Positions 3,001-56,676 of a stretch of DNA of 64,000 nt are shown here, piece after piece (positions within the stretch are counted from its first letter, which is position 1; every line of letters starts with the position of its first letter). A program made the translations under genes and the position numbers. This DNA comes from Promethearchaeota archaeon (GTDB taxonomy: Archaea; Asgardarchaeota; Lokiarchaeia; Sigyniarchaeales; SOKP01), in NCBI GenBank assembly GCA_011364975.1, contig RDOE01000004.1:3316-67315 (forward strand), read 5' to 3'. The notes below the pieces were generated by a model. That model searched no databases, was not told where the DNA came from, and worked only from the letters and a program-made list of their open reading frames with translations.

Positions 3001-5794
3001 AATTTTCTGCTATAATCTTAAGAGAAGTGGTTAATACTTGCGTTTCATGAAGATATTTAGAAAACACAAAATAAATAGGATAAGTACCATTTGGGGCTCC
3101 TTCTGTGTATAGAGGAATCGAATAATTGCCTTGCCCTAAATAGGAGATATAACCAACTTGATAGGAACCAGTCCACACTCTTCCCCATAATCTAAGAGTT
3201 CCTGTAGAATTTTCATACACCTGTATCGTTGCACCAGATATCCCCCATCCTAAGTAAGTGGAATAATTGATCCCGAAATAGGCGGTCTCTCCAGAGGATA
3301 CTTGGCTAATCAATGAAGAAAATTCAGCATGAGTCTTATTAAGGATAAAAAACTCCATAATATAAGAACCAAATCGTAAAGCTTTACCAGTTTCAAGGTA
3401 ATTTGAGGTGTCATTCCAAAGAAATCGCAAATAATACTTCCCAATAGCATATTTTTCATCTAAATTTAGATTACCCTCTATTTTATCGTTATTTGAAGGA
3501 AAATGTTGAGGAAATTCGTTTAATAAGTTGCCAATTCCGTTGTATAGTTCAATCGTATAATTACCCATAGTAGATTCAAGCAAACTAAGATTATATAATA
3601 TTGAATTATAAGAATAAAAAGCTGGTAAACTCGAATATAGCACTGTGTTGTTAAACTTACCTGAAATAATGTAATTAGGTTGATATCCACGTAATGTCCA
3701 ATTTCCAAGCCTAAATGCACTAAAAATCGTAGCACTTTGAAGATTAAGGCTTGGTGTATGATTAAAAAGGAATAGATTCTCAGTAAAATCTGTTAAAGTG
3801 GGAGTTAATGCTTCGAAAATCTCCCAGTTTATACTATTTGATGCGTTTAAATCAAAAGCAGGCATATCAAGATATGAAATTGCATATCCAGATAAATTAA
3901 AGTATGGAGTATAATTCGCATAAAGCAATTGATTATAGGAAAAGCTATTGTCATATTTAATGTTCCATATACCTCTATCAGCGTTAGATCCAGGTATTGA
4001 ATAACTAGCAAAAGCTCCTAATGGTGTTTCAAAAGTGATTGCTAAACTTGATTTAAAGTTTAGGTATAATTTATCTTCTAAACTTAAATTATAAGTTAAA
4101 AATTGGAAACTATGTTCCGATCCTCCAATCCAATCGGAAATATTGATATAATGTACTCCCTCTGTGACATTATCCCATATAGGGGCGTTATCAGTATTGA
4201 TATATAAACGTGAATTAGAAATGGTTTGTTTGTAATTTATTGTAAAATAAACATCATCTAGATACGAGATGTAATCTATTTCATTATAATAATTGTTTTC
4301 AAATGCTACTCCGATTTTGAAGGCCAAATTATTTACCTTTAGGAGTTCTTCATATTCCTGGGAAAGACTAAAGCTCATATGGTGCCACGGTGTACCAGAA
4401 TAATCATCATAACTAACCTCTGCCATCGAAAAAGGAAGAACCCTTACATTTTGATAATTACTAGTTTCCAAGTCTCCAAGATAAAGGACTATAGAAGCAT
4501 CATTATCAAATTTAAAGGGATTTACTCCAGTACCATCAACATCAATTAATTTATAGCTGTAATCTAAACGAGCAACTTCATATTTCGTTGTGGTATTATA
4601 AAGGATTTCTATTGATTCAAAATTAACAGAAATTAAATCTTCATCTCCTCCATGGCTTGGAGCTCTAGCCCAAGCTCCAAAGTCAAATTTATTTATTCCA
4701 ACTAATCCATTGATTAAATTAGTTATGTTATAGGTACGCGATATAGTGCCATGATTGACATGGCCTATAATTTCTGGATTATTATATACCATTAGAGCAG
4801 TATCAGAACCATTATAAGGTATTTCTCCTTCCTTTGAAATCCAATTATTTCCATTGATGTACTTATTATTAATCCGAGCAATAATTTCATATTTATCTTC
4901 GGTTTCAAAGGTAGACTGTTCATCAAGACTCCATGTAATAGTCATTTGAGCATAATCTGCCTCATATGGTACTAAAATGTAATACCACCAAGCCGCTGAA
5001 GGGTTTCCTCCAAAAGAGTAACTACTTGGATCAATAATAAGCTTCAAACTTGAGAGTGATTCCTCGTAATATAAGTCTATGAAATCATAAAGAGGTTTGT
5101 AAATTCCACCATAAGGGCTTTCTGAATCCTTATAAAATCCTGGATTTGTGTTAAAAGAGTTAAAGTTTAATATAGTTTGATCTTCTTTCTGTATGATCCT
5201 CCCTCTTTGAATGGGTAAACTCTGAGGATTTATATCCAGTAAATTCTGTGTCCAAAAGGCAAAATCACCGGGGTAGAAAGCAGGGGTGCTTCTATCCTTG
5301 CTGTTATAGATTCTTGTTCTCCCATAATTATAATCCTTTAAATCGTATTGTATAAAATACCCATCACCACTCTGTCTTTTTTCTGTCCCCCAAAAATCGT
5401 ATTCATATTCAAAGGGAGAATCTTGAACTATTTGTTGTTTTGAATATGGTTCAATTTCAAATTGCATCGAAGATGCATTCCATAAGTTGGGTGTAGTGAT
5501 GTTAAAGTAATTATTTGGGACTGCGAGATGATCGTTTTCAGTAATTGTACTAGTAGCATTTTCAAGGGTTTTAAAATGAGTAGTATTAATTTTATTATAT
5601 CCTCCTATATCCCCAGAAATGTCAGATGAATGATAGAAACCTGGTTCATATGCAGGATCAAAATTCTGAGTATAATTATTATTATTTAAATCAACAATAC
5701 ATTCATTAAATTTAGACCCTTCAGAAATAACAAGAAATAAACAAAAAATAAATCCCATAATTGCGAATTGTGTAACTTTTTTATTTTTCTGCAA
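29..5794 (-). CDS. Giant (1921 aa) single-pass surface protein. It has an N-terminal signal/anchor, a very long sequon-rich beta-rich ectodomain with Ig-like repeats, one TM helix, and a roughly 320-aa cytoplasmic tail with a longin/roadblock-like alpha/beta module.
   Basis: Uninterrupted 5.8-kb ORF. Hydrophobic N-terminus FAIMGFIFCLFLVISEG. Dozens of N-x-S/T sequons (NITT, NASS, NATST and others). Hydrophobic span LVPYIIIAVGILVAFIFIIH is followed by basic PKRRRK. Tail motif is YIIILTSDGGVPCFSKS...DETLISGFLSAISSFGQEIG...FKIILNEGKYTRVALLLL. TTG start is preceded by a GGGGTGG SD-like box 6 nt upstream. Confidence 0.75.
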   Translation of the reverse strand: MQKNKKVTQFAIMGFIFCLFLVISEGSKFNECIVDLNNNNYTQNFDPAYEPGFYHSSDISGDIGGYNKINTTHFKTLENATSTITENDHLAVPNNYFNITTPNLWNASSMQFEIEPYSKQQIVQDSPFEYEYDFWGTEKRQSGDGYFIQYDLKDYNYGRTRIYNSKDRSTPAFYPGDFAFWTQNLLDINPQSLPIQRGRIIQKEDQTILNFNSFNTNPGFYKDSESPYGGIYKPLYDFIDLYYEESLSSLKLIIDPSSYSFGGNPSAAWWYYILVPYEADYAQMTITWSLDEQSTFETEDKYEIIARINNKYINGNNWISKEGEIPYNGSDTALMVYNNPEIIGHVNHGTISRTYNITNLINGLVGINKFDFGAWARAPSHGGDEDLISVNFESIEILYNTTTKYEVARLDYSYKLIDVDGTGVNPFKFDNDASIVLYLGDLETSNYQNVRVLPFSMAEVSYDDYSGTPWHHMSFSLSQEYEELLKVNNLAFKIGVAFENNYYNEIDYISYLDDVYFTINYKQTISNSRLYINTDNAPIWDNVTEGVHYINISDWIGGSEHSFQFLTYNLSLEDKLYLNFKSSLAITFETPLGAFASYSIPGSNADRGIWNIKYDNSFSYNQLLYANYTPYFNLSGYAISYLDMPAFDLNASNSINWEIFEALTPTLTDFTENLFLFNHTPSLNLQSATIFSAFRLGNWTLRGYQPNYIISGKFNNTVLYSSLPAFYSYNSILYNLSLLESTMGNYTIELYNGIGNLLNEFPQHFPSNNDKIEGNLNLDEKYAIGKYYLRFLWNDTSNYLETGKALRFGSYIMEFFILNKTHAEFSSLISQVSSGETAYFGINYSTYLGWGISGATIQVYENSTGTLRLWGRVWTGSYQVGYISYLGQGNYSIPLYTEGAPNGTYPIYFVFSKYLHETQVLTTSLKIIAENFFEFNIVSGASEIDSKWVLSSNNIPYVNDTINSMIRVNLTDGGIPVTGGLVLGTIGMTENYFKAVEIGNGLYDLTLNTTGLNATKKVDSQFVENETLKIRCSASGYDIKHVNITIFIDKIPTQISLQNIQPIYAEGNILATATIVNKIDPLNPKPNNNANLTYYIYQGTTFKLNGSLGFLMSGVYQKQIYLSGLLPGGYAIYINGSSINCADSQSNIINFTILPQDATLLDISIPTTLRILKEFQIRTTLTYAINSTPIQGQIIYLNISVGLTENFIITTITNIEGISTYQYIIPQQYKGQNITIHAYYQGQSSIAASSAKITKIIQGKIPIMLNIIQYPNVLRVGYSARYALQINITEGSESLQNRIIFFSAYYDDQLDIPFVTNQLYTDENGLCYNEIPEIANGKMNLTIYFEYLGSTTVAYNITSKFDLIQPKWTSNFSMQPLPSVMRFGQTIRFEIHLYCENSSIILQNLPIFFTFRYGTTIEIYTGLIGENNTLVYLYGIPNSFTGDLNLTIVFDGTNKIEGYSLNFSFPISPKIQVQLEFREPPQTQYMYGTYSFEVWVTDELGNPLDGLFILFQILDNDDNLIYNFTAICENGIAIGSLDLSVGNNYKIKVDYIGEEYYESAQLTSANFRVINEFIIFLDLVPYIIIAVGILVAFIFIIHRGVVVPKRRRKVEALKNLYQKLSDVENIPYIIILTSDGGVPCFSKSLADVPIDETLISGFLSAISSFGQEIGSKITEGVGGLEELSYRQFKIILNEGKYTRVALLLLRRPSNSLKEKLKFFNHFFEEVYKERLISFSGEVFDDASVTKMIEDIFEADLLYPHQIVETKVQDYLKSSMPNNVDKKIIVIARSEDFESNFYLRELINHLKTKGIEEIKSFESIQKLKSDKVVFAINPRTNYLIAEFQKYIKHMDSDDKNILFAIFDGSTDIMKINKYLNKRNLKLSKDIDKTIEKLKSLHLINELNQTTEIGSAVATLLKLIPDL

Positions 5795-47316: not shown

Positions 47317-48624
47317 ATGGGAAAAGATCCTAAAACAACCGCTGAAAATCAATTAAAAAAAGCAGAGCAACTATATAAAGCACGGCAATTTAAAAAAGCG
47401 GGCAAGAATTTTCATTCAGCGGGTATTTCTTTTCTTAAACTAGAAGAATATGAAATAGCTAAAAATTGTTTTCTTGAGGCGATAAAACCATTTTTAGAAT
47501 TAGACAAATACGATACGATTTTAGAACTAATACGAAAGGCAAGCGAAGCTTGTTTGCAAAATAATCAATATTCAGAAGCGTTCCGACTTTATAAAGATAC
47601 AATGAACCACATCCCTAAATTAAAGAGTGAAACAGATAAAAATGATAATTATGTTCTCTTTTCTGTTTTATCCTATCTATGTTTACATGCCAATGGTGCT
47701 CCTGAGGAAGGATTAGATTATATTAAAAGAAATAGAAATAAGATAGACAATGACTTCTTCAAAGAAAATAATTTGATTCAATTAATTTCAGAGTTAACAC
47801 TTTCCATCAGAGATAAAACGGAGAAATATCTTGAAAACATTCAAAATAATCTTAATCAATTTAAATTAAGAGATCCGGAAGTAAAATTGTTAAAAGACGT
47901 TATACTGTTGACGAAATTTCAGCTTTTAATTGAAAGTTCTTTAATCTTAGATAAGGACACTTATACTACCAATGACATTATTAATTTAAATGTGGAGTTA
48001 GACACCAATCCTCTCATTCAAGTGCTTAATAACTCATTTTTTAAATTTAAAATCAATAGTTTTCAAATTATTAAACTAATTGTAAGTCTTTCGGATAATT
48101 TAACCACCAATAAAAAGCCAGACTTACCGTTTTCATTAGATATTGGTAGTAAAATTACTTTACCTTTTACATTAAAACCTCACTTTCAATTGGATAACCC
48201 AAAGATAGGCCCTATAAACTTAACGTTTGAATTGAATAATCTACTAATTTTTAATTATGATACCTCCGTTATAATCCCAAATTTAATTTCACCCCCTGCC
48301 TCCTTAGAGGCTTCAATAAAGAATTTACGCCCACCACTTTTAGATCAATCATTTCCATTAGAAATTTTAATTGAAAATCGAAGCCAAGGAGAAGCGCTAG
48401 ATGTAAATATTGATGTTGAATTTCCTGAAGAGCTTAAACTTATGAGAGGCACCACAAATAAGCAAATATATTCATTAAGAAGTAATGAAAATTTAAAATG
48501 GGAGGTCAACCTAAAACCCCTTGATGTAGGAGATTTCATCATTAAAATAAGTATAAAATTTAAAGATCCTGATGATAATCAAATCAACGATGTAAAAGAA
48601 TTCCCCTTTTCAATAAAAATGTAA
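47317..48624 (+). CDS. Two-domain protein: an N-terminal SNAP/TPR-like alpha-solenoid and a C-terminal Ig-like beta-sandwich (CARDB/ASH-like).
   Basis: 435 aa. N-terminal helical-hairpin pattern QLKKAEQLYKARQFKKAGKNFHSAGISFLKLEEYEIAKNCFLEAIKPFLEL. C-terminal strand pattern PLEILIENRSQGEALDVNIDVEFPEELKL...WEVNLKPLDVGDFIIKISIKFKD. Confidence 0.5.
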   Translation: MGKDPKTTAENQLKKAEQLYKARQFKKAGKNFHSAGISFLKLEEYEIAKNCFLEAIKPFLELDKYDTILELIRKASEACLQNNQYSEAFRLYKDTMNHIPKLKSETDKNDNYVLFSVLSYLCLHANGAPEEGLDYIKRNRNKIDNDFFKENNLIQLISELTLSIRDKTEKYLENIQNNLNQFKLRDPEVKLLKDVILLTKFQLLIESSLILDKDTYTTNDIINLNVELDTNPLIQVLNNSFFKFKINSFQIIKLIVSLSDNLTTNKKPDLPFSLDIGSKITLPFTLKPHFQLDNPKIGPINLTFELNNLLIFNYDTSVIIPNLISPPASLEASIKNLRPPLLDQSFPLEILIENRSQGEALDVNIDVEFPEELKLMRGTTNKQIYSLRSNENLKWEVNLKPLDVGDFIIKISIKFKDPDDNQINDVKEFPFSIKM

Positions 48625-49920: not shown

Positions 49921-51003
49921 ATGCAAACTTTTAAAATAATCCCTCAGTTTCGGGATAATTGCGTAATCCAAGGAAAGAAGGATTGGTTTCAGGATCTTAG
50001 TTTAGGAGATACGATATTTTTAATCGCAAATGAGCCTACTAAAAAATTCTCTATAATTACTAAAATAGATGGCATAGAGCCTGGAGAAGAACCAATTATA
50101 TATGTAGATCAACGCAATTTGGAAAAATTTGCAGAAGGAGATAAGGTATATCTTTTAAAATATAACCCTGCAGAAGCAATTGAAGTTCGAATTCATATCT
50201 CCGATGAATATAGTCTTATTTCAAAAGGAGATTGGACCAAAAATATTAAACCTTCATTAACTAATAGATTGATTGATATAGGTCAAGAGATTTCCTTTTT
50301 AATTCCATGGGATGCGGGAGATCCAATTATCGGAGCAGGGCTAATAACCTCTACTTTGCCGAATCCTCCATTATTCATCGGTGATCGAACAAAAATTATT
50401 TTAGATAAATTTTCTAATGAGATTCTTTCTAAACTTAAACGTCTTACGATACAAAGTAAAGAAGATCGAGTAGAGATACTGGAAAAACAAATAGAGCAAA
50501 ATATCATAGAGTTTATTAAGAAAATAAAACATCAAAATTACCCCTTCAAAGGTCAAAAATATCAATTTAAAGCAACAAATCCAAAACAATTATTTGAGTC
50601 TATTCTCACATTATTTAAAGGTTTGGATATAATAGAAGAACCAGTTGAAAAAAATTTTGATGAGAAAGATCAAGATTATTTTGCATCAGTGGTCTTCTTA
50701 AATAGAGAAATTGTCCCATATTTACAACTGATTGATCTTCAAATTATTGGTCTTAAAAATACTGGCATGCTAATAATATGGGTTACTGGAGAAAAGGAAG
50801 AGATTGTTGAAGAGACATTAAACAATTATAATACAAAAATATCAGCATTAAAACAAGGTTTAGAACAACATATAAACCTAGTAAGCATACAATGCCCAGA
50901 ATGTGGCGGAGCTTTACCAATAAAAGATATTCAGATAAATGGTATTGTTGAATGTGCATACTGTGCTAGAATTTCTAAAATACCTAAAGCATTACGATAT
51001 TAA
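49921..51003 (+). CDS. Cdc48/VAT N-domain-like protein (double-psi barrel plus beta-clam) with a coiled-coil middle and a C-terminal Zn ribbon. No ATPase domain. First gene of the Ub-like operon.
   Basis: 360 aa. LSLGDTIFLIAN...IIYVDQRNLEKFAEGDKVYLLKYNPAEAIEVRI aligns by eye with VAT-N IGDVVEIE...IVRIDSVMRNNCGASIGDKVKVRKV..AKKVTL. IDIGQEISFLIP...GLITSTLPNPPLFIGDRTKIIL matches the second subdomain. C-terminus is CPECGG-x17-CAYC. Confidence 0.55.
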   Translation: MQTFKIIPQFRDNCVIQGKKDWFQDLSLGDTIFLIANEPTKKFSIITKIDGIEPGEEPIIYVDQRNLEKFAEGDKVYLLKYNPAEAIEVRIHISDEYSLISKGDWTKNIKPSLTNRLIDIGQEISFLIPWDAGDPIIGAGLITSTLPNPPLFIGDRTKIILDKFSNEILSKLKRLTIQSKEDRVEILEKQIEQNIIEFIKKIKHQNYPFKGQKYQFKATNPKQLFESILTLFKGLDIIEEPVEKNFDEKDQDYFASVVFLNREIVPYLQLIDLQIIGLKNTGMLIIWVTGEKEEIVEETLNNYNTKISALKQGLEQHINLVSIQCPECGGALPIKDIQINGIVECAYCARISKIPKALRY

Positions 51004-51008
51004 TTAAA

Positions 51009-51842
51009 GTGGAATTAATCATGGATGAAAACCGATATACTAGACTCAAAGCGCTAAAAGATTTTGGATATGAAATTAACTGGGATGATTTAAAAAGAAA
51101 AAGCGTTGCTATTATTGGTATAGGAGGTTTAGGAACTGTAAGTTCAGAAATGGTGACACGGTGTGGAGTGGGAAAATTAGCTTTATTTGACTTTGATACA
51201 GTTGAACCAGTTAATCTTAATAGAAGTATGTTTAAACCGAAGCATATTGGAAAACCAAAGGCAGAGATAGCCGCAAAAATATTAAATGAAATCAATCCTG
51301 ATGTTAAAATCTATTACTTTATTAAGGACATTATGGATATTGATTTTGAATTTACATTTGAAAAAGAACTTTCAAAGATGGACATAATTCTTAACGGACT
51401 TGATAATATTTCTGCTAGAGAATACCTTAATAGTAAATGTGTAAAGTTGAGAATTCCATATATTGATGCTGGAGCTTCTCGCAGCGGATTATCGGGTTAT
51501 ATTCACCCCATTATTCCTTTCAAAACAGCATGTGCTAAATGTATTAAAAGTATAGCAATAAATCTTCCCGAAGAGAGAGGAGAGCCTTGTGTAGCATCTC
51601 TACCAACAACTATGGCGATACTAGCAAGTATTCAAGTGCAAGAAATGTTAAAACTTCTTCTAAAATTTGGTGAAATGATTGATTATGTTATGTATCATAT
51701 GATTACTGGACAATTCCTTCATTACAATACAAAGAAAGATAATAATTGTCCTATCTGTGGTATTAGAAAAAAAGACGGTAAAAGAATAAAGTCAAAGGTT
51801 ACAGATAAAGATATAGAGGATATAATTGAAAAAATAGAATAA
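51009..51842 (+). CDS. E1-like ubiquitin-activating enzyme (ThiF/MoeB/Uba family).
   Basis: 277 aa. Motifs IIGIGGLGTVSSEMVTRCGVGKLALFDFDTVEPVNLNRSMF, CAKC...CPIC zinc pairs, and PCVASLPTT (Cys loop). An alternative ATG start at 51021 has better spacing to an AGTGGA box. Confidence 0.85.
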   Translation: MELIMDENRYTRLKALKDFGYEINWDDLKRKSVAIIGIGGLGTVSSEMVTRCGVGKLALFDFDTVEPVNLNRSMFKPKHIGKPKAEIAAKILNEINPDVKIYYFIKDIMDIDFEFTFEKELSKMDIILNGLDNISAREYLNSKCVKLRIPYIDAGASRSGLSGYIHPIIPFKTACAKCIKSIAINLPEERGEPCVASLPTTMAILASIQVQEMLKLLLKFGEMIDYVMYHMITGQFLHYNTKKDNNCPICGIRKKDGKRIKSKVTDKDIEDIIEKIE

Positions 51843-51974
51843 ATTAGGTGGTTTATCATCAAAAGGATCCAAATACCCCAAATTTTCATTGAGGTCATTA
51901 AGAATCAAGCTATCCTTAGTTACGAAGAGATATATGGATGGCTAATTGGATATTCTGAGTCAAATGTAACTAAA

Positions 51975-53051
51975 GTGTTAGCAATTTATGAATGTACACA
52001 ATTTATAGAACAAACGGTTATCCATGCAATGCCAGATATATTAGAATTTCAAGAAATTAGTTCAGTTCTTCCTCAAGGTATTGGACCAATAGGTATTTAT
52101 CATTCTCATCCAAGCCTAAGTGATATTTTTCATTCTCATACTGATGATTCAACTCTGATAAGCTTAACAAATCAATTTCAAGATTGCATCTCAATAATTA
52201 CTAATGGACAGAACATTAAATTCTACCAAATGGGGAAAAATTATAAAACTAAAGAAATAGAAGTTGAGTATATTGAACCGGAAGTACCAAAATTTATGTT
52301 AGTTTCAATTAATGAAAAATTTGAAATTTTCATTGATCCCGAATTTTTAACTCAAGAAAAAAGTTTAAGTAAATTAAATATACAAATTCAAAATTTAATC
52401 ATAAATTATTTTCAAAATAACTGGAACGAATTAGAATTTACACATAATAACTCAATAATAGGAAATAAAGATAAATTGCATAAATATTTAGTAGAGAAGT
52501 TAAATACGGAACCATTACGGCTTAAAATTCCATCTAATTTAAAGCAGCGTCATAGAAATTTATTAAAAGTTATCCAGAAAGGCAATAAGGATGATACTGT
52601 AAGTTACGAAGCTTTTGAATTTATTATTAATACAAAATTTCCACTCTATAATATTCGAAAGTATGATAATTTTGATACACTTAGTCAGAAAGTAAAGGAT
52701 GAATTTTTAGGAAATAATCTCATTCAAAAATTGCATAATTTAATCATTGATAAAGAAAACCTTAGAATTATTATACCTAATGACTATTATTTGAAGTTTT
52801 TTGGATTCTATATAAGAACTTTGAACTTCAATAAAAAAAACTTAAATGAAATCTTAATTAAGAATGAACCGTATAAGTTTGAATTGAAAATAATTCGCTT
52901 TTTGAAATCCTTCATAAATTTGGAAGTTTCAATTAAGTTTAAGAACTATTTATATGAGCTTTTGAATAATTTGGAAGATTTTGCTGAACATTTTACATGG
53001 AAAGAGAAATTAAGTGAAGATTTAAAACAACTCAAAATTAACTTAAAGTAG
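51975..53051 (+). CDS. JAMM/MPN+ metalloprotease (Rpn11-like deubiquitinase candidate) with a roughly 240-aa helical C-terminal extension. The true start is probably upstream, near 51855.
   Basis: JAMM motif GIYHSHPSLSDIFHSHTDDS. The matching catalytic Glu motif (EEIYGWLIGY) is encoded at 51924..51953, upstream of GTG 51975, in the same open frame. Confidence 0.75.
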   Translation: MLAIYECTQFIEQTVIHAMPDILEFQEISSVLPQGIGPIGIYHSHPSLSDIFHSHTDDSTLISLTNQFQDCISIITNGQNIKFYQMGKNYKTKEIEVEYIEPEVPKFMLVSINEKFEIFIDPEFLTQEKSLSKLNIQIQNLIINYFQNNWNELEFTHNNSIIGNKDKLHKYLVEKLNTEPLRLKIPSNLKQRHRNLLKVIQKGNKDDTVSYEAFEFIINTKFPLYNIRKYDNFDTLSQKVKDEFLGNNLIQKLHNLIIDKENLRIIIPNDYYLKFFGFYIRTLNFNKKNLNEILIKNEPYKFELKIIRFLKSFINLEVSIKFKNYLYELLNNLEDFAEHFTWKEKLSEDLKQLKINLK

Positions 53052-53147
53052 TAATGAAATTATTAATATTGAAAACCAAAATTAAAAAAAAATAAAAGGA
53101 ACATTTTTTTTAAATTTAATAAGATAAAAATCAGAGGTTAAAATATA

Positions 53148-53414
53148 ATGGCATCTGAATTAAATACCATCTATTTTGTTAATAAATTTGGAACAGAAAA
53201 AAAGCAAGTGCCATTCCCTGTTTCAGCAAACATTAAATTAATGGATGTTGTTCCAGAAATCTCAAAAAAGTTTGGAATCTCTTCTCAAAATGTTTGTATT
53301 GCAAATATGGGAGGACAAGTACTAACTAATACAGACCTATTAAGTCCAATTAAAGAAATTGTTGAAAAGTTCGGAAATACTTTTGATATTATTGATAGAG
53401 GGATTGTTGGGTGA
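53148..53414 (+). CDS. Ubiquitin-like beta-grasp modifier.
   Basis: 88 aa, small and operon-embedded between JAMM and E2. C-terminus is ...DIIDRGIVG directly before the stop. The TGA stop overlaps the GTG start of the E2-like gene (GTGA). Confidence 0.7.
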   Translation: MASELNTIYFVNKFGTEKKQVPFPVSANIKLMDVVPEISKKFGISSQNVCIANMGGQVLTNTDLLSPIKEIVEKFGNTFDIIDRGIVG

Positions 53415-53953
53415 CCAGTTCAGATAAAAGATGGCAAAGGTCTATAGTAGATGAATTAATTCAAGAATTTTCTAACAATTGGGTTTCCATAGGACCTAAA
53501 AATCCTGCATGGAAAGATCGGGTAAAGTTAGAGATCGAAAAAATTATGCAGTATATTAATTTCTTAAAGAATACTAAAAATAGACCTTGGTTTAAGTTAT
53601 TTCCAGAACGAAATCCTCGTTATAATTATTTAATTTGGGCAGGAAATTTGGTTGTGCCTGAACGATCTGAAATAAATTTCGATATCAAAGTATTACTTAC
53701 TTCTGAATATCCAAAAGTATGTCCAAGATGTTTCGCAGAAGAATCTATTTTAAATTACTGTGGTAAAATATTTTTGAAGAATATATGGGAACAGGATAGT
53801 AAAAAGTACGTAATGATATGTCATGAACATATGTCTGATACTAATGCATGGAATGAGCGTCTTGGTATTGTTCATTTCTTTATACGCCAGGTATGGGTAT
53901 GGTGGGCTGCTCAACAAAATGTAATTATCCAAGAATATGATAAAAAACATTAA
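53411..53953 (+). CDS. E2-like ubiquitin-conjugating enzyme (UBC fold).
   Basis: 180 aa. FDIKVLLTSEYPKVCPRCFAEE resembles the UBC YP-x-x-PP-x-x-F segment. NYCGKIFLKNIW resembles the catalytic G-x-ICL-x-x-L-x-x-x-W segment. Confidence 0.65.
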   Translation: MTSSDKRWQRSIVDELIQEFSNNWVSIGPKNPAWKDRVKLEIEKIMQYINFLKNTKNRPWFKLFPERNPRYNYLIWAGNLVVPERSEINFDIKVLLTSEYPKVCPRCFAEESILNYCGKIFLKNIWEQDSKKYVMICHEHMSDTNAWNERLGIVHFFIRQVWVWWAAQQNVIIQEYDKKH

Positions 53954-54161: not shown

Positions 54162-55544
54162 ATGTCTAGAGAATCCAACCAACCCTCCAATACTAAGGAT
54201 ATGCCAATTAGCTTACAAGGGATTGAAAAAATCTTGATTTTTTTAAATAATAATGATAAAATCCTTTTTAGTATTAGAGAAATTGGTTACAAGACTAAGT
54301 TATCGACCCGAACGGTCAAAAATATTCTACTGCAATTAGAAAAATTTAATCAGGTTGAACGTGTCATTGAAGGGAATAATGTTATCCCAAAATGGCAAAT
54401 CACTAAATTCGGAAAAAGAGTATTAAAAGAAGCTAAGGGTGTTGGGAATAATATCACATTTTCTACAAGAGAAGAAGAATTGTTAAAAGGAATAGTGATA
54501 CCTCAAGAAAAATTTCTTGATAATGATTTAAAAAAGACTTTAGATAGAGCACTATCTGAATTAAATACTATGCAAGTTGAAATAAGTAAAATTTTGGGGT
54601 CAATTCTTAATATAAATAATCCAATTTTAGAAGAAACTACTGGATTCATTTTAAAAAGAATCAAATTTCTCAAGCAAAAACTTACTAATTTGTTTGATGA
54701 CCGAACATCTCAAATTTCTAAAGTGGGTGAAAAATCAAAGAAATTTTCCAAAGAAGAGATAAAATTTAATAAAGTGGAAAAATTGCTCTTCAACTCATTA
54801 ATTATTAATCAGATGAAGAGAATTTCAGATATAATTATAGATCTTTCCAATAATGTTGAACATCTAGAAGTTAATAATTCTCTCTCTCTTGCTAATGATT
54901 TAAGAGACGAGATTAGGATCATAAGTGACTTAATTAATCAAAGGGAATCATTAAAAATAGGTTTAAATATTCTTCTAAAAGAAGATTTAAAACAACTTTC
55001 CAATAATAAAATTGCACCTGATATTCTGGATAAAATAATTGAGATTCCCTTGTCTGAGGATATTTTAGGGAGAGAAGTTGGAGAAACGGTACTAACGTTA
55101 TTAAACAGGTTAAATAAAAATGAGACAGTTCTTATAGATCATAATTATGAATTGACAGATTTTATTCCTTTGTTTAAACTCTTTCAGCTTATTTTAGATG
55201 AAAAGCCCAATTTAAACTTTACCATCGATAAATTAGAAGAAACAATCAATGAACTCTCTGAACAAGGATACATCCCTGGAATGAAAACTATTCGGGATGC
55301 AGAAAACAATTATTTGAAAGTAGTTCAACTTAAACCTCATGATGTTTCACAAGATGAGATAGAATTAGTAAAAATTGCATTGAAGCAAGAAAAGTTTACT
55401 CTCGCAGATATTATCAAATTAACAGGTTGGTCTCCAGAACACGCATCAGAACTTTTAAATAAGCTAACAAAGCTTGGAATATTAAACTATTCCAGGTCTT
55501 TTTTACATGGAGAACGATGGTTTGTTATAACCGAGCAAAAATAA
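54162..55544 (+). CDS. Winged-helix protein: N-terminal wHTH, coiled-coil middle, and a C-terminal EAP30 (ESCRT-II Vps22/Vps36)-like tandem WH.
   Basis: 460 aa. N-terminus FSIREIGYKTKLSTRTVKNILLQLEKFNQVERV. The C-terminus KTIRDAENNYLKVVQLKP...FTLADIIKLTGWSPEHASELLNKLTKLGILNYSRSFLHGERWFV parallels the human SNF8 C-terminus (LRVFDSGVMVIELQS...[44 protein letters not shown]). Confidence 0.5.
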   Translation: MSRESNQPSNTKDMPISLQGIEKILIFLNNNDKILFSIREIGYKTKLSTRTVKNILLQLEKFNQVERVIEGNNVIPKWQITKFGKRVLKEAKGVGNNITFSTREEELLKGIVIPQEKFLDNDLKKTLDRALSELNTMQVEISKILGSILNINNPILEETTGFILKRIKFLKQKLTNLFDDRTSQISKVGEKSKKFSKEEIKFNKVEKLLFNSLIINQMKRISDIIIDLSNNVEHLEVNNSLSLANDLRDEIRIISDLINQRESLKIGLNILLKEDLKQLSNNKIAPDILDKIIEIPLSEDILGREVGETVLTLLNRLNKNETVLIDHNYELTDFIPLFKLFQLILDEKPNLNFTIDKLEETINELSEQGYIPGMKTIRDAENNYLKVVQLKPHDVSQDEIELVKIALKQEKFTLADIIKLTGWSPEHASELLNKLTKLGILNYSRSFLHGERWFVITEQK

Positions 55545-55575: not shown

Positions 55576-56676
55576 ATGTATAAGGAAATAAAAGGTAAAA
55601 GTGTTGTTGATTCCGAGCCAGAGATTATTGCTTGGCAACGTCATGGGATTGATACTAAAAATGGGCCGCTAATTTATGTATTTCCTAAACCAGGTGATGA
55701 TATAAAAAGCAAGAAATTTTTTGCTGTAAAAGATTATGAAAGAGCATTATTTTATAATAAGGGAGAACTTCTAGGAGTCCTCGGGGGCGGGGTCTATGAA
55801 CTAGAGAAAAAGGCAAAAATAAAGGGGACGGAGATCGTTTGGATTGACACCTCTTTTGTAGACATCCAGTGGGGAATACCACAATCTAGTGGTATACCCA
55901 CTTTGGATGGTACTATTCTCGGTTTACATGGAGATCTAAAATTGAAAATAAGGGATGTTAAAATATTTTACAATGATGTAGTAGCTGGTAAAAGCCCTTG
56001 GACCGTTCAAAATCTGAAAGAATTTATAATGAGTCTACTGCATACATCCTTTAGAGATATATTTAAAAAATATAAGGCTAAACAAGTTTTACTAGAGGAG
56101 CGAGAGCGAATAATTAATCTACTTACAGCGAAGGTCGCCGAGGATTTTTTAAGATATGGTTTAGAGCTAGAAACCTTGAATATACTTGGTGTTAAAACCT
56201 CTGAAGGTACAGAAACTCTTTTTAGAGTAGAAAAAGAAAAAAGTAATGTTTCAGATGAGATCGAAATTTTAAAAATAAAAAAAGATCTTGACGCTCAAAA
56301 AATGGAATTAGAGGCTGCTAAACGAGAATTTCATCGAAAAGAAGAGATTTTAGATTCTCGTATGGAATTGGAAAAATCTAAACTTCAAACTGAGGCAGAA
56401 AAGATTGAGGGAGAAGCTAAATCTGCTGTGTTGGAAAAACACGCTAGAGCGGCTGTAGCAGGAGAGATGAGAATATTGGAGGTTCATGGAGATAAAGCAT
56501 TAGAAATCGCAGATAGTAGTAGAAAGGATCAAATTCGGGCTAAGATTGATGAATTAAAAGAAAAGTTAGATAAATTTGATAATTTATTAGCAGAAGATAA
56601 AATTTCAAAGGATATTTATAAAACAAGAGTAGAGCGAATTGAAAAAGAACTGAAAGCGCTTGAACAACAACTTTAA
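55576..56676 (+). CDS. SPFH/Band-7-like (YdjI-type) domain protein with a long coiled coil and a SHOCT-like C-terminus.
   Basis: 366 aa. N-terminal pattern FAVKDYERALFYNKGELLGVLGGGVYEL...IVWIDTSFVDIQWGIP...LHGDLKLKIRDVKIFY. The C-terminal 150 aa is heptad-rich and ends LLAEDKISKDIYKTRVERIEKEL. Confidence 0.5.
   Translation: MYKEIKGKSVVDSEPEIIAWQRHGIDTKNGPLIYVFPKPGDDIKSKKFFAVKDYERALFYNKGELLGVLGGGVYELEKKAKIKGTEIVWIDTSFVDIQWGIPQSSGIPTLDGTILGLHGDLKLKIRDVKIFYNDVVAGKSPWTVQNLKEFIMSLLHTSFRDIFKKYKAKQVLLEERERIINLLTAKVAEDFLRYGLELETLNILGVKTSEGTETLFRVEKEKSNVSDEIEILKIKKDLDAQKMELEAAKREFHRKEEILDSRMELEKSKLQTEAEKIEGEAKSAVLEKHARAAVAGEMRILEVHGDKALEIADSSRKDQIRAKIDELKEKLDKFDNLLAEDKISKDIYKTRVERIEKELKALEQQL

Follow-up and report, generated by a model that had tools for sequence, protein, structure and literature searches.

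Gene Organization and Distribution of the Operon

A stretch of 64,000 nucleotides of contig RDOE01000004.1 from a Promethearchaeota archaeon of the class Lokiarchaeia (positions 3,316 to 67,315 of the forward strand; this whole stretch is called the window below) carries at its positions 49921–53953 five co-directional genes that form a compact operon on the forward strand. The first gene (g1, 49921–51003) codes for a protein of 360 amino acids with a Cdc48/p97-N-like domain and a LysW-like C4 zinc ribbon. It is followed by the gene of a UBA5-like E1 enzyme (51009–51842, 277 amino acids, GTG start), the open frame of a JAMM/MPN+ metalloprotease with a non-canonical start codon (51843–53051), the gene of a UFM1-like ubiquitin-like protein, or Ubl (53148–53414), which is a beta-grasp protein of 88 amino acids ending in ...DRGIVG before the stop codon, and the gene of a UFC1-like E2 enzyme (53411–53953, 180 amino acids). 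In our opinion, this cluster is probably an archaeal UFM1-type protein conjugation cassette. Since the E1, the E2 and the Ubl are all nearest to the UFM1 pathway, the system should be classed as UFM1-type and not as ubiquitin-type, as had been proposed when only the letters of the DNA and the list of its open reading frames were considered (the sequence-only reading). The eukaryotic pathway consists of UFM1, UBA5 and UFC1, the UFL1–DDRGK1–CDK5RAP3 E3 complex and the proteases UfSP1/2, and UFMylation is an essential quality control pathway of ribosomes at the endoplasmic reticulum (ER).

The consecutive genes are separated by 5, 0 and 96 nucleotides, and the last two overlap by 4 nucleotides (GTGA), in agreement with the coordinates and spacing of the sequence-only reading; the G+C content of the region is about 30%. 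The spacer of 96 nucleotides ahead of the Ubl gene (53052–53147) is AT-rich and possibly serves as a second promoter for the Ubl and E2 genes, because in two related loci, those of Lokiarchaeum ossiferum (L019; complete genome) and Sigynarchaeum (L029), the JAMM–E1 pair is divergent from the Ubl–E2 pair and the two pairs are thus separable.

Scanning for the E2 family in one genome per species gave 32 related loci, in which the neighbouring genes were located by tblastn with the proteins of the window. The order g1–E1–JAMM–Ubl–E2 was found again in about 18 Lokiarchaeial loci, and the order E1–JAMM–Ubl–E2 in 5 Heimdallarchaeial ones, some of them in the complete genomes of Heimdallarchaeum aukensis and H. 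endolithica. Overall, there are about 25 operon-type loci, distributed among Lokiarchaeia, Heimdallarchaeia, Hermod- and Sigyn- lineages. Conservation of the gene order in both Loki and Heimdall loci means that this run of open reading frames is not a matter of chance, and the view that it represents a compact eukaryote-like Ubl conjugation operon of an Asgard (Lokiarchaeota) genome was borne out. The assignments of the E1, JAMM, beta-grasp and E2 proteins agree with the matches in Pfam, PDB and Foldseek searches, and all the motifs that had been quoted for the E1, the JAMM protein and the E2 are present. In NCBIfam, no equivalog was found for any of the seven proteins, i.e. the five products of the operon and the two of the linked genes considered below.

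The E1 Enzyme

The E1 has the ThiF fold (Pfam ThiF, E-value 9e-53). When it was compared with PDB sequences by phmmer, human UBA5 was the best match (1.3e-49, 172 bits), followed by E. coli MoeB (1.7e-26), ThiF (2e-22), UBA1 (6e-21) and UBA3 (about 1e-21), and its identity with human UBA5 amounts to 38% over 270 residues. The GIGGLG and NLNR motifs and two CxxC pairs are all found in it. The catalytic cysteine of UBA5 (Cys250 in the human protein) lies inside the adenylation domain, the zinc site is formed by two cysteine pairs, and the C-terminus holds a UFM1-interacting sequence (UIS) and a UFC1-binding sequence (UBS). In the alignment, Cys194 of the archaeal enzyme, within RGEPC-VASLPTTM, pairs with the UBA5 motif REGVC-AASLPTTM (in a wider context, RGEPCVASLPTTM is aligned to REGVCAASLPTTM of UBA5), and the zinc pairs ACAKC and NCPIC correspond to ACFAC and QCDDRNC. 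Like UBA5, the archaeal protein has one adenylation domain, which itself contains the cysteine and a zinc site, and a separate catalytic-Cys or UFD domain is absent.

At its C-terminus, the E1 of the window has a short tail of acidic or hydrophobic character (DKDIEDIIEKIE). In most Loki and Heimdall homologues, the second CxxC pair is followed by a basic linker and then by the conserved pattern [ST]xx[DE][LI][DE][DK][LIF]I..[LI], for example KVTDKDIEDIIEKIE, KISQGDLNDLIDKIKE and EGKTVDELIQNLDS. This motif is reminiscent of the UBS of human UBA5, LEDLMAKMKNM (...SLEDLMAKMKNM), and the likeness may be used as a lead only.

The E2 Enzyme and Its Catalytic Cysteine

The E2 matches the Pfam family UFC1 (PF08694) with 26.3 bits at a gathering score of 25. 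Its Heimdallarchaeum homologue reaches 26.1 bits and covers profile positions 5–144 of 155, and PF08694 is precomputed in about half of the E2 homologues available in the database. As a single sequence, the protein finds UFC1 in PDB with an E-value of 3e-4. A profile built from 15 family members finds UFC1 at 4.5e-6 as the sole significant family, the next family appearing at 0.06–0.3, with such canonical E2 enzymes as UBE2L3 and UBC9 no better than about 0.3. Weak UEV matches were also obtained, and the HPN motif is absent.

The YPKVCPRCF and YCGKIFLKNIW segments are both found in the protein, and the sequence-only reading had taken C-G-x-I-F-L of the latter for the active-site loop. This is probably incorrect, as the cysteine in question (C117) is variable among 22 homologues: several of them have T, S or A instead, and Heimdallarchaeum has EFAGKIY. 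The motif I136-C137-H138-x-H140 (I-C-H-E-H in the window), whose cysteine is situated 20 residues downstream of the C117 loop, is invariant in the same set. The active-site cysteine of UFC1 is Cys116 in the human protein. Full-length hidden Markov model alignments of the E2 with UFC1, made with HMMER, end near UFC1 residue 104–122 and place GKIFL incorrectly against GKICL. A separate alignment of the family profile to the C-terminal half of UFC1 put IC.HEH...LGIVHFF...WWAA opposite ICLTDH...FGLAHLM...PWLA, with a score of only 1.2 bits. Judging from these patterns, C137 is likely to be the active-site cysteine, and, in comparison with UFC1, about 20 residues including the non-conserved C117 are likely inserted ahead of it in the archaeal E2.

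The Ubl Tag and Its Forms

The AlphaFold2 model of the Ubl (predicted local distance difference test, pLDDT, 83) was compared with PDB structures by Foldseek. The best matches were UFM1 chains (5ia8, 5ia7, 5xda, 5hkh, 5l95, 6h77, 8bzr and 8qfc), with template modelling (TM) scores of 0.77–0.83, root-mean-square deviations (rmsd) of 1.1–1.3 Å and 78–82 residues superimposed at about 1.1 Å; among the eight best matches, seven were UFM1 chains with TM scores of 0.79–0.83. Ubiquitin chains gave TM scores of 0.60–0.68 and an rmsd of 2.7–3.0 Å. Mature UFM1 ends in ...RDRVG, and ubiquitin, SAMPs, ThiS and MoaD end in GG. In the archaeal family, residues D83, R84, G85, V87 and G88 are invariant, giving the common end D-R-G-x-V-G. 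The protein is highly conserved: it is identical (100%) to a protein of a Candidatus Lokiarchaeota metagenome-assembled genome (MAG), locus tag EAX89_01825, and the identities among Lokiarchaeia range from 57 to 100%.

In the window and 27 loci, the tag occurs in several forms: 17 end directly at VG, five have a short tail (WYE, GN, GF, L or ART), and six are fused to the E2. In the window itself, the Ubl and E2 genes lie in different frames. The fusions are in-frame, have a linker of 6–8 residues and were found in L004 (7740–8540), L006 (5991–6791), L009 (6283–7098), L013 (3096–3908), L014 (7725–8537) and L016 (7740–8543). Many similar fusions of 266–284 amino acids occur among the database proteins (P0049, P0054, P0059, P0060, P0063, P0066, P0068, P0069, P0074, P0079 and P0083). 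Such a fusion is a Rosetta-stone link of the tag with the E2. It also requires an endoprotease cutting after glycine, and the tailed and fused tags together suggest a processing role for the Rpn11-like JAMM protein.

These data also bear on whether the E1 could be part of a sulfur-carrier or SAMP/Urm1-like system, in which it would adenylate the beta-grasp protein for the formation of a thiocarboxylate used in cofactor or tRNA thiolation, with only occasional E2-independent conjugation. The ThiF fold of the E1 and the position of MoeB as the second-best PDB match speak for this, and SAMP systems are generally known to employ a JAMM protease, too. However, the E1 has no rhodanese domain and scores far below all the NCBIfam cut-offs for MoeB, ThiF and SAMP-E1, the tag always has a neighbouring E2 with an invariant cysteine, in many cases as a fusion, and the tag ends in VG rather than GG and is closer to UFM1 than to ThiS or MoaD. 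A sulfur-carrier function is therefore extremely improbable. The sequence-only reading had named a non-beta-grasp fold of the Ubl, a non-UBC fold of the E2 and grouping of the E1 with MoeB/ThiF as findings that would speak against it; none of these was observed, since the Ubl is a beta-grasp protein, the matches of the E2 are to UFC1 and, weakly, to UEV, and the E1 stands apart from those enzymes.

The JAMM Metalloprotease and Its Start Codon

The JAMM protein consists of an Rpn11-like N-terminal domain (approximately residues 1–125) and a C-terminal part of about 270 amino acids that matches nothing known. The former is recognized by Pfam Prok-JAB (1.9e-7, above the gathering score), and the best PDB match of the family profile is the Caldiarchaeum Rpn11-like enzyme 6fjv (2.6e-7), followed by BRCC36 and AMSH. 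The catalytic residues E29, H87-S-H89-P, S98 and D101 do not vary among 13 homologues. In eukaryotes, UFM1 is trimmed and removed from its targets by the UfSP cysteine proteases. It is predicted that the JAMM enzyme processes the Ubl precursor and removes the tag, and a metalloprotease thus appears to hold here the role of UfSP. The Caldiarchaeum Rpn11-like enzyme processes the archaeal ubiquitin precursor and strips ubiquitin from conjugates (PMC6043591).

The beginning of the JAMM gene is unusual. The first ATG, GTG or TTG codon in its frame is GTG at 51975, downstream of the codon for the catalytic glutamate, so translation must begin at a non-canonical codon, namely ATT 51843 or ATC 51855/51858. 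The two adjacent ATC codons follow a Shine–Dalgarno (SD)-like AGGTGG sequence (51846–51851, forward strand). A canonical start before the catalytic glutamate is also missing in 11 of 18 Lokiarchaeial loci (L001, L003, L005, L007–L013 and L015), which have in common the pattern GGTGA/AGGTGG, about 6 nucleotides and ATA/ATT/ATC (GTA in L012). An ATG is found at the same site in L014, L016, L017 and L018, and the Heimdall loci have ATG or GTG. The pattern suggests a conserved weak AUH start, which perhaps holds the dose of the protease low. As the E1 and JAMM genes share a frame in the window, their fusion by stop-codon read-through was also considered. Re-initiation is the likelier alternative, as the SD and AUH pattern is kept even in L003 and L007, where the two genes are not adjacent.

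The Cdc48-N/Zinc-Ribbon Protein

The AlphaFold2 model of g1 (pLDDT 83) comprises an N-terminal Cdc48/p97-N-like domain of about 165–180 residues, a long helix (166–204), an alpha/beta region (209–314) and a C4 ribbon (323–353). The N-terminal domain found the N domains of p97, Cdc48 and VAT in PDB by Foldseek with E-values of 7e-8 to 1e-5, as well as Ufd1, PEX1-N and NSF-N, and its TM score is 0.70 when normalised to the isolated p97-N chain 5x4l_B. The Cdc48/p97 N fold is composed of a double-psi barrel and a beta-clam, and g1 matches it structurally. Zn_ribbon_LysW was matched weakly by 13 of 18 family members, and g1 has otherwise no Pfam, NCBIfam or PADLOC family. Thus, the domain composition that the sequence-only reading had assigned to this protein is correct. 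The protein contains no AAA+ module and hence is not a Cdc48 ATPase. Its gene is the first one of the operon in Loki loci and is located nearby in Heimdall loci. Since N domains of the Cdc48 type bind UBX domains and ubiquitin-fold proteins, it is a reasonable inference that g1 is a candidate receptor or adaptor of the Ubl.

Homologues of g1 from three clusters (P0163, P0170 and P0189) have an extra N-terminal TIR_2 domain (PF13676) and weak ThsB-like matches in PADLOC, which may point to a part in conflicts or signalling in certain lineages. The same feature speaks slightly for a view of the operon as an antiviral or conflict system analogous to bacterial Bil/Bub (Ubl–E2–JAMM–E1) or CBASS Cap2/Cap3, in which viral proteins would be tagged. 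Such systems have a similar four-component make-up, the E1 is weakly similar to Cap2 and BubCD through its Rossmann region, and the MAG JAHLWS01 (isolate 33X4) contains two copies of the operon, a compact one (L010) and another interrupted by genes with a PCI module (L003). However, no PADLOC matches were obtained for g1, JAMM, Ubl and SPFH proteins of the window, although the 2023 version of PADLOC may lack Bil models; the matches of the E1 are generic, concern the Rossmann region and do not exceed 61 bits against 172 bits to UBA5; and those of the E2 (E-value about 2e-3) and of the EAP30-like protein (winged-helix regions of SoFic and AbiEi) are marginal and non-specific. The flanking genes are ordinary, e.g. 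that of an M24 peptidase. The synteny is stable and looks vertical in several Asgard classes, complete genomes included, and this, together with conservation of the tag at 57–100% identity in Lokiarchaeia, fits a housekeeping module and not a patchy defence island. An antiviral function of the operon is accordingly very improbable.

The Linked EAP30-Like and SPFH Genes

Two further genes on the forward strand accompany the operon in the window. One of them (54162–55544) codes for a protein of 460 amino acids in which an N-terminal winged helix and a coiled coil precede a C-terminal tandem winged helix similar to EAP30 (Vps22/Vps36), and another (55576–56676) for an SPFH/Band-7 protein which has a coiled coil at its C-terminus (Pfam Band_7 2e-10, Band_7_1 3e-10). 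The EAP30 likeness is confined to the C-terminal third of the 460-residue protein. The window protein itself does not match EAP30 (PF04157) and has only weak winged-helix matches in Pfam; five of 13 members of its family do match PF04157 (best 3e-4), and the best PDB match is SNF8/Vps22 (E-value 0.085, residues 334–437). Remote relatives of the C-terminal 120 residues were matched by EAP30 above the gathering score in nine of ten cases scanned. The Heimdallarchaeum gene in the same position scores 34.2 bits for EAP30 (gathering score, 26.8), and its product is aligned to the 460-residue protein by hhalign with 1.7e-5. The EAP30-like character proposed earlier for this gene is thus supported as to the C-terminal tandem winged helix.

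The EAP30-like gene is always paired with the SPFH gene, the two being syntenic in Loki and Heimdall loci, and the pair always adjoins the operon, either downstream, upstream or divergently. Such constant adjacency in varying positions is good evidence of a functional linkage, and the 460-residue protein may be considered a candidate scaffold or adaptor. Another possibility, that this neighbour or g1 might be similar to UFL1 or DDRGK1, was rejected: neither of the two proteins nor their families have matches to PF09743, PF09756 or UFL1/DDRGK1 chains in PDB, and the neighbour is EAP30-like at its C-terminus.

Genes of Vps25, ESCRT-III, Vps4, RING and HECT proteins were not found in the neighbourhood, which accords with the absence of RING/HECT domains from the operon (by Pfam) and of ESCRT-III/Vps4 genes from its surroundings noted before. 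The link from ubiquitin to ESCRT-II drawn by the sequence-only reading was an over-interpretation, as only the winged-helix module of EAP30 is common and the gene travels with SPFH and not with ESCRT genes. It belongs to a more general alternative, namely a canonical ubiquitin-type system resembling the Ub–E1–E2–(RING)–Rpn11 operons of Caldiarchaeum and Asgard archaea and feeding ubiquitylated cargo to ESCRT-II. The parts list (Ubl, E1, E2 and JAMM) is identical, among solved structures the JAMM domain is nearest to the Caldiarchaeum Rpn11-like enzyme, the adjoining gene is EAP30-like, and ubiquitin-fold chains occur among the Foldseek matches of the Ubl. All three core proteins, however, point in another direction: the E1 matches UBA5 at 1e-49 against about 1e-21 for UBA1/UBA3 and has no Cys or UFD domain, the E2 matches UFC1 at 4.5e-6 against about 0.3 for UBE2L3/UBC9 and has no HPN, and TM scores and rmsd values of the Ubl, as well as its VG rather than GG end, favour UFM1 over ubiquitin. 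Taking also into account that RING and ESCRT genes are absent from the neighbourhood, a system of the ubiquitin type is very improbable.

Other Genes in and near the Related Loci

In some Lokiarchaeial loci, extra genes are situated beside or between the genes of the operon and code for an Arf-like GTPase, LRR proteins, a membrane protein and others. The common element of the inserted genes is a C-terminal PCI-type winged-helix module of about 85 amino acids (...EIYAEYFSS.KAIAFDQQANIEEIDKLM..YKEWE...), and the PCI match in Pfam is above the gathering score in one protein with this module. The modules are located in L007 (2252–6431), L003 (3824–7619), L005 (8695–9912), L006 (7521–8770), L008 (7504–7704) and L017 (10852–11058), as well as in L027 and L032; the window contains no copies. 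These genes may simply represent an expanded family. L027 and L032, which are contigs of JANBVM01 labelled as Patescibacteria group bacterium AMOR_Bin_1762, contain fragments of E2 with 79–86% identity to the Lokiarchaeial E2 and the PCI module, and they are most likely mis-binned Asgard sequences.

Upstream of the operon, a gene at 47317–48624 of the window codes for a protein of 435 amino acids with weak N-terminal SNAP/TPR and weak C-terminal TRAPPC13_C-like matches, none of which reaches the Pfam threshold. As it is without a counterpart in the 32 related loci, it stands outside the module.

Comparison with Known Systems

The archaeal operon may be compared with the eukaryotic UFM1 pathway component by component. 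In addition to the adenylation domain of the E1 with its cysteine and zinc site, the pathways are alike in that the E2 exceeds the Pfam threshold for UFC1, the tag combines the UFM1 fold with a Val-Gly end, and its precursor in some lineages needs C-terminal trimming. On the other hand, the archaeal genes form an operon, a JAMM metalloenzyme is present instead of UfSP, and Cdc48-N/zinc-ribbon, EAP30-like and SPFH genes are linked to it, whereas those of UFL1, DDRGK1 and CDK5RAP3 are not nearby. Unlike UFC1, the archaeal E2 probably has the above insertion of about 20 residues ahead of its active-site cysteine, and ICHxH replaces ICLTDH. Some genomes have the tag fused to the E2, and its sequence shows no detectable similarity to that of UFM1.

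Several of these points weigh against the assignment of the operon to the UFM1 type. The Ubl has no sequence match in Pfam, NCBIfam or PDB, UFM1 was not found in PDB with either the single sequence or the profile at E-values up to 10, and BLASTP with human UFM1 gave only a match of 19 residues at the level of chance; its assignment follows from the predicted structure and the VG end. The match of the E2 to UFC1 is barely over the threshold, its N-terminal two thirds alone being significant, and the placement of C137 on Cys116 comes from the 1.2-bit alignment and conservation. The tail of the E1 is missing in four homologues (L013, L016, L019 and L029), and the archaeal E1s have neither an evident UIS-like segment nor the long C-terminal region which carries the UIS in UBA5. 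Homologues of UFL1, DDRGK1, CDK5RAP3 and UfSP were not found in the neighbourhood, to which the search was confined.

The ubiquitin operons of Caldiarchaeum subterraneum and Asgard archaea (PMC6043591, PMC9192718) are likewise archaeal operons for a eukaryote-like Ubl cascade, and the Caldiarchaeum one also employs an Rpn11-like JAMM enzyme for the Ubl precursor. They differ from the operon studied in having a tag with a GG end, a UBC E2, an E1 with a Cys domain and a RING E3. The bacterial Bil/Bub and CBASS Cap2/Cap3 operons have the same four parts (tag, E2, JAMM and E1), and the E1 cores are distantly related, but the sequence ties are far weaker than those to UBA5 and UFC1, and the other proteins have no matches to defence families.

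Homologues of UFM1 were reported in nine Asgard clades on the basis of structure models by Köstlbacher et al. (bioRxiv 2024; Nat Microbiol 2026; PMC12962969). Among prokaryotes, they are restricted to Asgard archaea and show limited sequence similarity to UFM1 (PMC12962969). Probably, the Ubl of the window and these homologues belong to the same protein family. The main text of that paper does not mention UBA5, UFC1, an operon or synteny, and the fusions and linked genes are not described in it. According to Picchianti et al. (2023), UFM1, UFC1, C53 and UfSP2 occur only in eukaryotes, UBA5 is widespread in prokaryotes and was derived from bacteria, and UFL1 and DDRGK1 were traced to Asgard archaea (PMC10183829). 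Liu et al. and Hatano et al. refer to UFL1-like domains only. In the searchable full-text literature, neither such an operon nor an Asgard UFC1 was found to have been described, and one apparent match turned out to be the taxon name UBA5614; since the coverage of this literature is incomplete, a prior report is possible. What would be new here is an operonic UFM1-type system serviced by a JAMM enzyme, at times with the tag fused to the E2, and with unfamiliar accessory proteins.

Proposed Mechanism and Significance

By homology with the eukaryotic pathway, the UBA5-like E1, presumably a homodimer like UBA5 and MoeB, would adenylate the C-terminal Gly88 of the Ubl and take it over as a thioester on Cys194. 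The Ubl would then be handed to Cys137 of the UFC1-like E2, possibly recruited by the acidic/hydrophobic tail of the E1, and attached to lysines of the targets. The JAMM enzyme would expose Val-Gly where the tag has a tail or is fused to the E2 and would probably also detach the tag from its targets, in place of the UfSP cysteine proteases. The Cdc48-N/zinc-ribbon, EAP30-like and SPFH proteins are candidates for a receptor, scaffold or targeting layer.

A broader evolutionary scenario may be put forward only tentatively, and we consider it rather doubtful. The UBA5–UFC1–UFM1 core might have arisen in Asgard archaea as one operon, with the JAMM enzyme, the Cdc48-N/zinc-ribbon receptor, the EAP30-type scaffold and the SPFH membrane-microdomain protein as its original accessory layer. 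The pairing of a winged-helix protein with a membrane one would then be a functional forerunner of the winged-helix E3 UFL1–DDRGK1 at the ER membrane, UFC1 and UFM1 would not be eukaryotic inventions, and UfSP would have replaced JAMM later.

If the assignment of the operon to the UFM1 type is true, the E1–E2–tag core of UFMylation would predate eukaryogenesis and would have existed then as an operon. Asgard homologues of UFM1 have been known by structure without their partners, and the operon would supply them with a UBA5-like E1 and a UFC1-like E2. It would also offer a minimal clonable system for studying the mechanics of non-canonical E1–E2 pairs, while fusions of the tag with the E2 and the exchange of UfSP for JAMM would be new variants of design. 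The linked Cdc48-N, EAP30-like and SPFH genes would be definite candidates when a primordial layer of E3 or receptor proteins is sought. As the module is carried by a cultured host, e.g. Lokiarchaeum ossiferum, the ancestral targets of this modification can be sought.

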